In this document: positions 28,301 to 31,763 of the stretch, one piece after another
Layout: each line of letters opens with the position of its first letter
How positions within the stretch are numbered: position 1 is the stretch's first letter
DNA from: Pseudomonadota bacterium
Lineage (GTDB): Bacteria > Myxococcota_A > UBA9042
DNA: 64,000 nucleotides
NCBI GenBank assembly: GCA_041163625.1
Contig: JBEARB010000253.1
Coordinates: 11,034 to 75,033, forward strand
Direction of reading: 5' to 3'
Notes under the pieces: model-generated
Seen by the model: only the letters and a program-made list of their open reading frames with translations
Databases searched by the model: none
Told to the model about the DNA's origin: nothing
Translations under genes and position numbers: made by a program

Positions 28301-31300
28301 CACGATGATCGTGCTCTTCCGCGAGACGATGCCTTCGTTCCTCGGTGCGCAGGACGCGCCGACCGCCGCCTACGGCTTCATGCTGATGACCAAGACCAAG
28401 GAGTCGGTGCAGCCGGAGGAGTACGCGGGCTCGACCTCGACGACCGGCACGGTCAAGGAGATCAGCACGCTCGACAAGGTCGGCTGCAGCAAGGAGCTGC
28501 TCGAGACCGTCCTCGGCCCCGGCGCCAAGCTGACCGCCGACAACGCCGCGGTCATCGCCCGCGCTGCGGTCAACGGCACCGCCCCGGTCGGCAAGGCCAC
28601 CGAGTTGACCGACGCTTCGCCGCAGAAGGTCCACTACCTCTGCGAAGACACCGGCTACTTCAATGCCGGCAGCAAGGACTACCCGAACGCGCAGAAGGAC
28701 TTCCCGAACGCCAACAAGCTGACGTTCGACTGCCCGGTGGGCAGCCAGGTGACCTACTTCACGCTGACGGGTGAGCTTTCGCAGTCCGACTGCCCGACCA
28801 ACTGGAGCGGCAAGGGCGACAGCTCTGCGTGCATCGCCGAGTTCGTCGCGCGCCAGCCCTGCCAGCAGGATGGCTCGTGCTTCCAGACCTTCCAGGAGTG
28901 GAAGATCAAGGGCCCGGCCGGCGGCAAGCTCGGCTTGCTGGTCAACCCGCCCTGGCGCTGCAAGGACGAGAACAAGAACTGGTGCGACTACAACCGTCAG
29001 AACCTGCGCAGCGAGAAGCTCTTCTTCGTCCTGAAGGACGTGAAGCCGAGCAAGCTGTTCACGCCGCTGACCGCCGAGATCGATCAGGCGTTCCGCTACA
29101 AGACTCGCTTCCGCAACCGCTTCGGCAAGAACATCGGCTTCACGCCGACGATCTGCGTGCCCGACAGCGACGCGGTGCCCTACTGCTACGACCCGAAGTC
29201 GATCGAGAACATCCGCGAGCGCGTCGATTGCGTGGCGGAGATCTACACCTCCTACGCTGCCAAGCTCGACACCAACACGCGTGACCAGGTCCACGCCTAC
29301 TTGGTGCAGAACTACGGCTTCAAGCAGGAGATGAACCCGGTCGACGGCACCATCGAGAACAAAGAGGGCTTCGAGAAGCTCTACACCGAGTTGCTCGTCA
29401 TGCTCGGCGACGACTCGTACGTGAAGGCGTTCGGCTCGCGCTTCGACCTCGCGGGGACGCAGTCGATGGTCTTCGAGGGCGCGCTCTTCGAGGACGGCGG
29501 CATCACCCTCTCGGGCACCGCCGGCGTCGAGATGGTCGAGCTCTACCGCGCCATCCAGTACTACCAGCTCGGTCTCGATCGCTTCTTCCGCAACGCCAAG
29601 CTGATGAGCGCGAGCCTGAACCCCGACTCCAAGTCGCTGCAGCTGCCCTTCCTCGGTCAGCAGACGGTGGAAGCGTACTTCACCCGCCTGACGCGCGCCT
29701 CGATCCAGAAGACGCGTGCCTGGAACGCCATCGCGCAGCGCTACGTCGCGTTCAACAAGCAATCGCTGGCCCGCGCGGTCATCGAGCGCGCCTACACCGC
29801 CGCCTACCTCGAGTCGGTCATCCTCGGCCGCATGATGCTCAAGCTGCTCGCGGCTTCGAAGCCCGAGGAGCGCGCGCAGATCTTGTCCACCGTGGAGAAG
29901 GGCCAGATCGCCTACCGCTCGGCGATGCTCGAGATGCGGGACGTGTACAAGGGTATTCAGGACACCAAGACCATCTTCGGTCTGCAGCCCGACTACATCC
30001 CCTTCCCGGCCCTGGACTCCAACGACGGCAACGCCTTCCAGAAGGCGCTCGGCGTCGCGAGCGACAAGATCAAGGTCGCGGCGGAGAAGGAAGAGAAGGC
30101 GCTGTCGAGCAAGAAGACCTACGACACCGACGAGGCCGCCTTCCAGAACGAGCTGATCAGCATCCGCAACAACTACGAGAATCAGCTCGCCGACATCTGC
30201 GGCACCTTCGAAGGCACCGACGGCAAGGTCTACCCGGCCACCACGAAGTACGCCTACCTGCACCCGAAGGCGGCGGCGCTCGGCAACCTCTGCGGCATGG
30301 TCAAGACCGGCCGGCTCTCGCTCGCGGTGAGCGACCTCGACATCGCCAGCATCGAGCTCAAGCTCGCGCGTGAGGGCTACGAGAAGGCCATCGCCGCGAT
30401 CAAGACCGAGCGCGAGCGCGTGCAGAAGCAGTGCAACCTGACCTGGGAGCAGTCCAACTTCTACTTCGAGATCGCGCAGAAGGAGTGGAACCTCAACACG
30501 GTCATCGCCGAGGCCCAGGAGTACATCGAGTTCGCGCAAGAGGGCTACGAGATCGCCCGCGACCTCGCCAACGCGCTCGACGTCACCATCGGCCTCTCGA
30601 CCAACGCGCCCGGCAAGGCGCTGCAGTTCGCCGCGATCCAGGGTGCGAAGATCGCCAAGGACGCGCTGAGCCTGAAGAGCAAGGTGGACATCAAGCTCAA
30701 GGAGCAGGAGCTGCAGGAGCTCGAGCTGCAGAAGGCGAAGAACCAGTTCGCCAAGCAGTGCCAGACGATGCAGATCGAGTCCGAGGCGAAGATCCACGAC
30801 ATCCTGATGAGCCTGAAGTCGGGCGAGCTCGAGATCGCCAAGGTCAGCATCCGCGTCGACCAGGCCCTGAACGAGGTGATGAGCCTGCGCAACGAGGCCC
30901 GTCGCCTCATGGCCGAGCAGGAAGAGGCCGAGCAGCAGACCATCAACATCGAGGCCGCCAAGAACGACCCGAACACGCGCGTCTACAAGAACGACGACGT
31001 GCTGACGGCCGACCGCACCTTCCAGGCCGCGGTGAAGGAGGCCTACAAGGCCACGCGCGTCTTCGAGTACTACACCTCGCAGTCGTACGCGAAGCTCGAC
31101 GACCTCTTCCTGGTGCGCATGATCAACCACGGCGACACCAGCCTGGAGAAGTACCTCGCCGAGCTCTCGGACGCCTACGCCGAGTTCGAGGAGCTGTACG
31201 GCAAGCCGGACCAGCGCGTCGCGATCCTCTCGCTGCGCGACGACCTGCTCGACATCCCGCGCATCAGCCCCGAGGGCAAGACGCTGACGGACAGCGAGCG

Positions 31301-31763
31301 CATCGCCCTGATGCGTGAGCGCCTGGCCGACACCAAGTTGCTCAACGACCAGGGCTACCTGACGATCAGCTTCGCGACCAACCTCTCGGTGCTCTCGCCG
31401 CTGACCCGGAACCACAAGATCGACTACATCGAGGCCGAGCTCATCGGCTCGGAGGTCGGTGACACCCTCGGTCGCGTCTACCTCGTGCAGCGCGGCACCT
31501 CGACGGTGCGTTCGGTCACGGGTCAGAACCAGTTCTACACGCTGCCCGAGCGCGTCGCGGTGCTGAACGCCTTCTTCAACGGCAAGAAGGTGTTCCCGGC
31601 CCAGGTCTACCAGAGCCGCAAGCACAAGGACCGCCCGTTCGCCAACGGTGACTGGCAGCTGATGATCAACCAGAAGGACGAACTGGTGAACCAGGACGTG
31701 AATCTGCAGTCGCTCGTCGACCTGCGCATCTACGTCTACTACACCGACTTCACGTCGCTCTAA
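25317..31763 (+). CDS. Giant (2149 aa) lipoprotein: N-terminal array of Cys-rich modules, central beta-rich region, ~550-aa coiled-coil/alpha-helical region and a distinct C-terminal domain.
   Basis: Internal ATG 25317 (MAVLERIRTLFGTMPRGLGALALVTAIGLSACAG, lipobox) inside track ORF 25152..31763. Residues ~40-430 hold about 12 tandem copies of a C-x2-G-x2-GC-x-C-x4-C-x2-GL-x-C-x3-4-C module. Residues ~1500-2000 are heptad-rich (E/K/A/L/Q). The protein ends with …RIYVYYTDFTSL. Confidence 0.75.
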   Translation: MAVLERIRTLFGTMPRGLGALALVTAIGLSACAGESGSDAASDGTCEPGTKDCLCATGAACGPGLSCVSGSCKAGEQGALGMACFANMTCNPDEEGRAMLCVGGVCQKASCTQGSEGCGCLAGATCAAGLTCDTSTGAALCQKAACADNVGTLGCACDADYGCAAGPGGAALACDGKLCISAICAPGTENCFCGEKATCASGLNCDAGTFRCVKPSGCTQGESGCACKGDGSCIGDKLVCNSNVCVVENCPAGEIGCTCKGDGSCAVGGDALLVCQSGKCLPKAGCAEGTPGCACTATGGCQGDGFICDSGTNTCKAVSCAAGALNCGCKAGATCDAGLVCANGQICVDNKGFPGGACLDGDLCNAGAKCDGGKCATCALGSEGCACFTGGGCFAPLTCHLGSCVAPGNSSTTVPASLDPPKDAQCWTPCNQGVTKPDGTFVACGADGLLPGCVDDLTCVKGSCVKKGDTPGKCETDLDCAEHQTCYLADGHCYSNCNVDMDCGDGASCYRHVCRKTCDTKAGCDKGQFCKTIDGENGFCMPLAPPTKCEGPQCGQKAVLGSFSLQEDQLSLSDANATGQIVVDVDSASETSLKVRKVRHSMVGQGGEEVTCVAGSNNCPCQPGDGKVVLAGVTYYCDTAKTPPLHWLKIGTSDKPLEKVQSIDVKVGAGKTSFTLLLSTEGASPAPAWQGVVEISHPNYGVGEVFLSYAVRPDGRWIGTAYFFATFEDEGLDKWLLNPQDFNLVKNAFVQQWQVFRNQPMANYEMINAMMTSVIDETWQWEKVRKDCKSFGENAACIPYAPQQPGSIGATSGLYKVSSDSRTIRMPSGVTELPLSFNLKSTADPTLLTGRITTADSLQYGGNPSIGGIKLKQDPAKACTGGLCVIGVSDMSIDMAIGGRYVSNSSDTTCQDMPAGAYGHVALPWLVPGFLVGTETDNKTNTVYRYECRSKKVPFGDDPAQMVANMTSAASNPIADGKPRSRTLTLLDGALINQTTMIVLFRETMPSFLGAQDAPTAAYGFMLMTKTKESVQPEEYAGSTSTTGTVKEISTLDKVGCSKELLETVLGPGAKLTADNAAVIARAAVNGTAPVGKATELTDASPQKVHYLCEDTGYFNAGSKDYPNAQKDFPNANKLTFDCPVGSQVTYFTLTGELSQSDCPTNWSGKGDSSACIAEFVARQPCQQDGSCFQTFQEWKIKGPAGGKLGLLVNPPWRCKDENKNWCDYNRQNLRSEKLFFVLKDVKPSKLFTPLTAEIDQAFRYKTRFRNRFGKNIGFTPTICVPDSDAVPYCYDPKSIENIRERVDCVAEIYTSYAAKLDTNTRDQVHAYLVQNYGFKQEMNPVDGTIENKEGFEKLYTELLVMLGDDSYVKAFGSRFDLAGTQSMVFEGALFEDGGITLSGTAGVEMVELYRAIQYYQLGLDRFFRNAKLMSASLNPDSKSLQLPFLGQQTVEAYFTRLTRASIQKTRAWNAIAQRYVAFNKQSLARAVIERAYTAAYLESVILGRMMLKLLAASKPEERAQILSTVEKGQIAYRSAMLEMRDVYKGIQDTKTIFGLQPDYIPFPALDSNDGNAFQKALGVASDKIKVAAEKEEKALSSKKTYDTDEAAFQNELISIRNNYENQLADICGTFEGTDGKVYPATTKYAYLHPKAAALGNLCGMVKTGRLSLAVSDLDIASIELKLAREGYEKAIAAIKTERERVQKQCNLTWEQSNFYFEIAQKEWNLNTVIAEAQEYIEFAQEGYEIARDLANALDVTIGLSTNAPGKALQFAAIQGAKIAKDALSLKSKVDIKLKEQELQELELQKAKNQFAKQCQTMQIESEAKIHDILMSLKSGELEIAKVSIRVDQALNEVMSLRNEARRLMAEQEEAEQQTINIEAAKNDPNTRVYKNDDVLTADRTFQAAVKEAYKATRVFEYYTSQSYAKLDDLFLVRMINHGDTSLEKYLAELSDAYAEFEELYGKPDQRVAILSLRDDLLDIPRISPEGKTLTDSERIALMRERLADTKLLNDQGYLTISFATNLSVLSPLTRNHKIDYIEAELIGSEVGDTLGRVYLVQRGTSTVRSVTGQNQFYTLPERVAVLNAFFNGKKVFPAQVYQSRKHKDRPFANGDWQLMINQKDELVNQDVNLQSLVDLRIYVYYTDFTSL

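Follow-up and report, generated by a model that had tools for sequence, protein, structure and literature searches.

The window analyzed here, a stretch of 64,000 nucleotides (nt) from a bacterium that GTDB places in Myxococcota_A (assembly GCA_041163625.1, contig JBEARB010000253.1), carries on its plus strand a gene for a large lipoprotein (25317 to 31763), which belongs to a Myxococcota family without a Pfam or NCBIfam model. The C-terminal part of this protein is probably a very divergent relative of the A component (TcA) of the toxin complex (Tc), or ABC, toxins. The enclosing open reading frame (ORF) spans 25152 to 31763. With the ATG at 25317 taken as the start, the product has 2148 amino acids (aa) rather than the 2149 of a preliminary description made from the DNA, whose designation of the product as a lipoprotein holds: the N-terminus, MAVLERIRTLFGTMPRGLGALALVTAIGLSAC, reads as a lipoprotein signal with the lipobox LSAC and Cys32. 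The region singled out in that description, 29900 to 31763, corresponds to residues 1528 to 2148, and all of the peptides quoted from it were found in our translation (ELKLAREGYEKAIAAIKTERERVQKQ at residues ~1680 to 1705, IESEAKIHDILMSLKSGELEIAKVSIRVDQALNEV at ~1820 to 1854, and RIYVYYTDFTSL at the C-terminus).

The signal peptide with its lipobox (AIGLSA-C32) occupies 25317 to 25412, and the lipobox stands in the same place in at least 49 of 62 homologues. The +2 residue after the lipobox Cys is mostly Gly across the family. In Myxococcus xanthus, Lys at +2 keeps lipoproteins in the inner membrane, and given this rule the Gly would fit onward sorting. The signal is followed by a Cys-rich region (25449 to 26996) with ~12 repeats of the type C..G..GC.C.....C..GL.C..G.C and 83 Cys in the first 560 aa. 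The length of this region differs among homologues and its occupancy in the family alignment is low; repeat number varies widely, and the count of Cys in the first 600 aa ranges from 13 to 99, with the lowest counts belonging to N-terminally truncated entries. A conserved middle region (26997 to 28916) completes the N-terminal half. An AlphaFold2 model of residues 560 to 1260 (predicted local distance difference test, pLDDT, 86) consists of β-sandwich or Ig-like domains, several of them within residues 560 to 1200, and one small helical insert. Searching the PDB with this model using Foldseek gave generic Ig-like matches only (E ~1e-4), so that the likeness to IgG-like receptor-binding domains is generic and not TcA-specific, and the TcA-like part of the protein is confined to the C-terminal ~950 residues.

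We modeled these residues (1200 to 2148) with AlphaFold2 and a 63-row family alignment, obtaining a mean pLDDT of 81.9 and a predicted template modelling score of 0.71 (residue numbers in the protein are model numbers plus 1199). The model opens with a helical domain of many separate helices (residues 1293 to 1655; 29193 to 30281; H94-H456 of the model), which has invariant alignment columns and in which two Cys residues and the coil segment FG..PDYIPFPALD are conserved. [quoted passage not shown] It falls inside the ~900 columns that align to TcA chains and has a weak collinear hhalign match to SepA 1693-1755. At ~360 aa plus conserved coil segments before the hairpin, it is far below the size of the TcA shell, and the equivalence is drawn only through the global Foldseek alignment. 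Next comes a giant antiparallel helical hairpin (30312 to 30962) with helices of 87 residues (1666 to 1752; H467-553) and 114 residues (1769 to 1882; H570-683) joined by a tip (1753 to 1768) that is modeled at low confidence. We regard the hairpin as a putative pore-forming (channel) domain. Highly conserved helices (residues 1885 to 1961; 30969 to 31199; H686-762, pLDDT ~90), with the sequence ...AINVEAARNDPNVRIY...VFEYYTSQSYA, then lead into a C-terminal β-sandwich (residues ~1965 to 2148; 31209 to 31760; strands E766-947) that ends in ...LQSLVDLRIYVYYTDFTSL and would correspond to the TcB-binding domain. A compact, conserved-looking C-terminal domain had already been noted in the preliminary description, and this observation is borne out by a pLDDT above 90 and by the family alignment, in which the C-terminal half is the most conserved part of the lipoprotein across the 62 homologues.

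The same description had read residues 1500 to 2050 as continuous heptads. The helical nature of the region stands, and its continuity does not: E, K, A, Q, and L reach 53% in residues 1671 to 1890 only, with flanks at 39-42%, and in a scan for a/d periodicity no more than a few 28-residue windows rise above the 99th percentile of a shuffled null. The peak in composition is thus confined and the periodicity patchy, which makes a ~550-aa run of heptads an overstatement. In the model, the region takes the form of the hairpin and a bundle, with no long fibrous coiled coil. These results also bear on the surface fibril that had been considered as one option, in which a coiled-coil stalk would carry an adhesin and the likeness to TcA would be convergence of long helices. 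We find this very improbable. The lipoprotein anchor, the Cys-rich and Ig-like N-terminal domains, and a weak match to coiled-coil fibers in a PDB profile search (P22 gp26 tail needle, E 9e-4) could be expected of a fibril, but the helices fold back on each other instead of forming an extended parallel coiled coil, heptad periodicity is patchy, and the significant Foldseek matches of the model in the PDB are exclusively to TcA.

In the Foldseek search of the PDB, ranks 1 to 21 were all TcA chains (E 1.6e-13 to 3.4e-10, probability 1.0, 849-937 columns, identity 10-13%). They comprise XptA1, TcdA1 in its prepore, intermediate, and pore states, XptA2, TcdA4, YenA2, and TcaA-TcaB. The alignments cover ~900 of the 949 modeled residues and include the non-helical terminal domain; the root-mean-square deviation reached its minimum, 20-21 Å, against the pore-state structures 6sue and 5lki. 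Rank 22, the next match after TcA, was botulinum neurotoxin (E 3.3e-3, probability 0.23, ~410 columns). Its HN domain has long paired helices for membrane translocation, as in the hairpin described here, whereas the terminal domain and the gene context are not shared. Homology to an SMC or chemoreceptor-like protein, which had been named as evidence to the contrary, was looked for and is absent. No ABC ATPase head or methyl-accepting chemotaxis protein signaling domain was found in the lipoprotein with Pfam or NCBIfam, and Rad50 chains appeared in Foldseek just at E ~8e-3. Searches of the lipoprotein, its segments, and the neighboring genes with Pfam, NCBIfam, and PADLOC gave nothing relevant to the lipoprotein.

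Features in the sequence follow the same order as in TcA. We compared the family with a TcA profile built from SepA (Serratia plasmid pADAP) and 83 of 120 TcA relatives, which carry the Pfam families PF18276, PF18518, PF20220, and PF18413. Weak matches between the family and SepA are collinear at a near-constant offset and fall in a segment of the helical domain, the apolar tip, and the last strand. In the last strand, the family motif 'L.sL.DIrLYiYYT' aligns with 'LesLsDIIlHIrYT' of TcA (hhalign P=0.003), and the distance from the tip to the C-terminus is ~375 residues here and ~360 in SepA. Tc toxin A subunits have long antiparallel helices in their α-pore-forming domain, with apolar loops at the tip of the channel (PMC11435725). 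Family and TcA have in common a charge-depleted, apolar tip within an otherwise amphipathic, charged hairpin (column-averaged Kyte-Doolittle hydropathy, KD, +1.1 with 3-8% charged residues in the family; +0.9 with 6-8% charged in TcA). A Cys...Cys tip loop is also present in most family members.

The family is large. A word-indexed search found the 62 homologues (1380-2300 aa, 33-91% identity, covering residues 560 to 2148), which are named 'hypothetical' or 'EB domain-containing protein' in their sources and originate from Myxococcota, Polyangia, or Vulgatibacter. When 1.84 billion cluster representatives were searched with a profile, 833 clusters (50% identity) matched at E<=1e-3, of which 339 were at E<=1e-30; in the best 150 of the 833, the match always lay at the protein C-terminus or the entry was a shorter fragment of the C-terminal region. 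GTDB species representatives hold at least 168 family loci, and the 79 of these covered by our locus analysis are nearly all from Myxococcota. Groups with the family include Myxococcaceae, Archangium, Polyangia, Sandaracinaceae, Nannocystaceae, Bradymonadia, and a cultured strain, Anaeromyxobacter terrae SG22, with locus L019 on contig NZ_JALCYY010000012.1. Among the 79, the closest relative, at 94% identity (locus L012), is on contig JACKFC010000020.1 of the metagenome-assembled genome (MAG) HK-STAS-MYXO-50.

Several genomes have two family copies (L026 and L037 on contig JACRCW010000008.1; MAG pairs L017/L028, L030/L052, L054/L066, and L059/L079), sometimes on one contig in opposite orientation. 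A cocoon gene, that is, a fused TcB-TcC gene, lies beside some of the paired copies and not others, a pattern that recalls polymorphic-toxin loci. Among viral proteins in BFVD, the top Foldseek match of the TcA-like model was A0A481Z1I0 (Mimivirus LCMiAC02, 1032 aa; E 1.7e-14, 731 columns), and the remaining viral matches were tape-measure or SMC-type noise (E >= 1e-4). It may be that a TcA-like protein is encoded in, or has contaminated, a metagenomic bin of a giant virus.

Neighboring genes provide support that is independent of the fold. At five of eight homologue loci reached by exact protein look-up, a cocoon gene of 2030-2160 aa lies on the same strand within 10 kb of the family gene; it is absent from the other three. 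Its Pfam domains are SpvB, TcdB_toxin_midN, FG-GAP, RHS_repeat, and TEN_YD-shell. The top PDB sequence matches of the cocoon at locus L006 were TcdB2-TccC3 (E 7e-29), TcdB1, and YenB, and its best stretch (516-767) matched TcdB2 551-802, which we take to be the TcB β-propeller that contacts TcA. Across the 79 GTDB loci, a fused TcB-TcC gene occurs on the same strand in 40. When only the 38 loci with full 10-kb flanks are counted, the cocoon gene is on the same strand in 26 (17 upstream, 9 downstream), while the other 12 comprise two with a cocoon gene on the opposite strand and ten without any. An adhesin would leave this linkage unexplained. The neighboring cocoon proteins start with signal peptidase I (SPI)-type signal peptides and have a DPxGL-type RHS core boundary, followed by variable tails of 190-250 aa, some with Gly/Ala-rich membrane-like segments. 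The tail of the L011 cocoon contains PT-HINT and AHH nuclease domains.

Other genes at these loci may be mentioned here. Two phage tail Collar-domain genes precede the L011 cocoon. Lipoproteins of ~150 aa adjoin cocoon genes at L006 (9493-9960), L007 (8202-8642), and L008 (3165-3641) and are related to each other (E 1e-14 to 1e-18); the cocoon tails at these three loci hold the Gly/Ala-rich membrane-like segments. These small cocoon-side lipoproteins could be immunity or assembly factors.

The fold match specific to TcA, the collinear features, and the recurrent linkage of the family to TcB-TcC genes together argue for a divergent TcA-type module. We therefore consider it likely that residues 1200 to 2148 are a highly diverged translocator module of the TcA/ABC-toxin A component. 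The copy in the window is an A-plus-partner locus. A Tc-toxin A-subunit-like assembly had been raised in the preliminary description as one option among others, and it gains support both from the 21 leading Foldseek matches and from the cocoon linkage of the family. The module would consist of the helical shell-like domain, the linker, the very long helical hairpin, and the C-terminal β-sandwich, fused to a lineage-specific N-terminal half with the lipid anchor, Cys-rich repeats, and Ig-like domains. In TcA, five copies each contribute a hairpin to the injection channel, which penetrates the target membrane with its apolar tip, and the β-sandwich docks the TcB-TcC cocoon (PMC11435725). By analogy, the lipoprotein would pass through Sec, be lipidated, and remain attached by a flexible Cys-rich stalk to the outer membrane or to vesicles, and it would oligomerize, probably as a pentamer. 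Targets would be recognized by the Ig-like and Cys-rich N-terminal domains and perhaps by the partner protein. A cocoon would dock on the C-terminal domain, the hairpin bundle would insert into the target membrane, and the C-terminal toxin of the cocoon would pass through. The window copy would need a cocoon encoded elsewhere, or it would act alone.

Several observations weigh against this interpretation and are taken together here. At the level of sequence, none of the TcA Pfam families (PF18276 TcA_TcB_BD, PF20220, PF18518, and PF18413) matched the C-terminal 898 aa at E<=10. With hhalign, applied to the whole module and to the terminal domain separately, the family profile scored a probability of 9% or less against SepA alone and against the 84-sequence TcA profile, which means that there is no significant sequence homology between the family and TcA. 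A phmmer search against PDB sequences and a profile hmmsearch gave only a chance match to a ribosomal protein and coiled-coil noise. The Foldseek template modelling (TM) scores are low (0.20-0.27) owing to a difference in domain orientation, which would be expected if the monomer model sets the hairpin unlike that of the assembled toxin. The middle region offers no TcA- or neuraminidase-like match in a Foldseek search of the PDB with the model of residues 560 to 1260, and a neuraminidase-like domain was not found with PF18413 either.

Export is a further point of difference. We know of no canonical TcA with a signal peptide. Canonical Tc toxins are released by type 10 secretion system (T10SS)-dependent lysis (PMC10847048), so that the export logic here differs. 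The A-like protein has a lipobox and the cocoons have signal peptides, which implies that assembly takes place in the periplasm or further out. The Sec signals on both proteins, lipobox on one and SPI-type on the other, also mean that both reach the periplasm first, and the clusters show no evident alternative path through the outer membrane. It is conceivable on these grounds that the system is an export conduit on the producer side, in which a lipoprotein on the periplasmic face docks the Sec-exported cocoon and the hairpin bundle serves as a channel in the cell's own outer membrane that releases the toxin, making it a secretion device and no injector. We judge this unlikely. The same fold works on the target membrane in the solved Tc toxins (PMC11435725), and the big Cys-rich and Ig-like N-terminal regions resemble extracellular binding modules.

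The remaining points against a TcA-type function concern the window copy itself. By tblastn, there is no TcB/TcC cocoon gene in the 64-kb window, and there is none near L012, its 94%-identical relative. The window protein and its three closest relatives lack the Cys pair at the hairpin tip, as does L012, and the apolar character of the tip is weak in the window protein (KD +0.22, 24% charged). The lack of a nearby cocoon gene and the polar tip leave room for a diverged or stand-alone role of this copy. Taken further, they could mean that the copy forms pores by itself, or that it is an orphan, functionally diverged or decaying, and in either case has ceased to work with a cocoon, a possibility that we regard as improbable. 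The gene is intact, with a G+C content at third codon positions (GC3) of 0.94 in its reading frame, and the C-terminal domain keeps the near-invariant residues of the family. The conserved terminal domain and the retention of the partner gene suggest that the window copy is functional. About a quarter of the full-flank family loci are without an adjacent TcB-TcC (BC) gene, and they coexist with complete loci in the same genomes, as A-only and A-plus-BC loci are found together in single MAGs (e.g., L017/L028 and L030/L052). We also considered whether the tip Cys pair and the BC neighbor are lost together, and this was unsupported: presence of the pair does not follow BC linkage across loci.

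The partner gene lies downstream on the same strand (31777 to 35550), beginning 14 nt past the stop of the lipoprotein gene. It encodes a Cys-rich lipoprotein (1257 aa; likely ATG at 31843) with the lipobox FAFGC, one DUF4215 repeat, and a conserved ~500-aa core, at residues ~480-1010, that contains a DGDGDGW motif. Of the 66 loci with enough sequence, 58 have a homologue of the partner directly after the family gene, and the window partner matches those at L001 and L002 with E-values of 1e-44 and 8e-41, respectively. It had no PDB sequence match and no Pfam model beyond the one DUF4215 repeat. The partner is a candidate fourth subunit of the system. A second large conserved gene beside the A-like gene recalls the split (type II) TcAs of Yersinia entomophaga (YenA1/YenA2) and Y. 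pseudotuberculosis (TcaA/TcaB), in which two adjacent genes share the A function. YenA2 (6ogd_B, 9c4k_B) and TcaA-TcaB (6rwb_A) are among the fold matches, and YenA2 has the highest target-normalized TM-score (0.21-0.22). Unlike in the split TcAs, the partner gene here lies downstream rather than upstream, and its product, a Cys-rich lipoprotein, shows no detectable similarity to A1 subunits.

Compared with TcdA1 of Photorhabdus, XptA1 and XptA2 of Xenorhabdus, TcdA4 of Morganella, and SepA of Serratia, the lipoprotein is predicted to have the same order of modules toward the C-terminus: a helical shell-like domain, a linker-like coil, a long antiparallel hairpin whose tip is apolar in the family average, and a β-rich terminal domain. 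The spacing between tip and C-terminus, the terminal-strand motif, and the family's linkage to TcB-TcC genes are likewise shared. It differs in its low identity (~10-13%), lipoprotein signal peptide, helical shell-like domain of only ~360 aa, additional Cys-rich lipoprotein partner, and occurrence in Myxococcota, and in an N-terminal ~1200 aa made of Cys-rich repeats and Ig-like domains with no detectable neuraminidase-like domain. The lipoprotein would thus work on the principle of TcA, and what is new is the way in which it is anchored, the build of its N-terminal half, and the putative additional subunit.

The likeness to fused TcB-TcC cocoons and RHS/YD-shell toxins sits in the neighbors of most family members, and the window lipoprotein is a candidate delivery component and no shell protein. 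RHS/YD-shell proteins were noted in a study of bacterial teneurin-like toxins to lack an obvious delivery machinery; teneurin-like proteins of Myxococcota were predicted to be Sec/SPII (signal peptidase II) lipoproteins, and such shell toxins are common there (PMC13018210, 2026). A genome-wide survey of Tc loci (1421 loci) leaves Myxococcota unmentioned (Song et al., 2021; PMC7861908), and we found no description of a myxobacterial TcA-like protein in the full-text literature, with most subscription journals outside this search. Catalogues of Tc loci are built on sequence models, to which a family of TcA-like lipoproteins is invisible. If our interpretation is correct, it would extend the Tc/ABC injection principle to predatory soil bacteria, would mean that such a machine can take the form of an exported lipoprotein instead of a cytoplasmic complex released by lysis, and would give the many Sec-exported RHS/YD-shell toxins of Myxococcota a candidate apparatus for their delivery. 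Very divergent A scaffolds would also be on offer for engineered protein-translocation devices.

A broader scenario, which we offer tentatively and hold to be rather doubtful as a whole, is that Myxococcota have a widespread Sec-exported, lipid-anchored Tc injectosome made of an A-like pentamer that a Cys-rich stalk tethers to the outer membrane or to vesicles, a fourth subunit that is a Cys-rich lipoprotein, and fused BC cocoons with signal peptides. It would kill prey or competitors on contact or through vesicles, with release that does not require lysis. In this scenario the cocoons carry polymorphic toxins (nucleases and membrane-active peptides), and A-only loci provide additional docking platforms with other target specificities that serve cocoons encoded elsewhere.

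Among the surroundings of the gene, one large ORF upstream (18547-22902, plus strand, 1451 aa) was considered as a cocoon gene and rejected, as it has no similarity to TcB-TcC cocoons. It has good coding statistics (GC3 0.89), a hydrophobic C-terminal region, and no Pfam, NCBIfam, or PADLOC match. The gene immediately upstream of the lipoprotein gene is divergently transcribed (minus strand, 23332 to ~25000), and its product has a receiver-like start (MSKSTALLIGG...), a long acidic low-complexity region rich in E, L, V, and D, and an Ala-rich coiled-coil tail. Two plus-strand ORFs at this location (23264-24673 and 23758-25389) were dismissed as spurious, with codon-position G+C favoring the minus-strand gene. 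Toward the right end of the window (56000-64000), the G+C content falls from about 0.70-0.74 to 0.60-0.66, a drop that might mark acquired DNA or a different class of genes.

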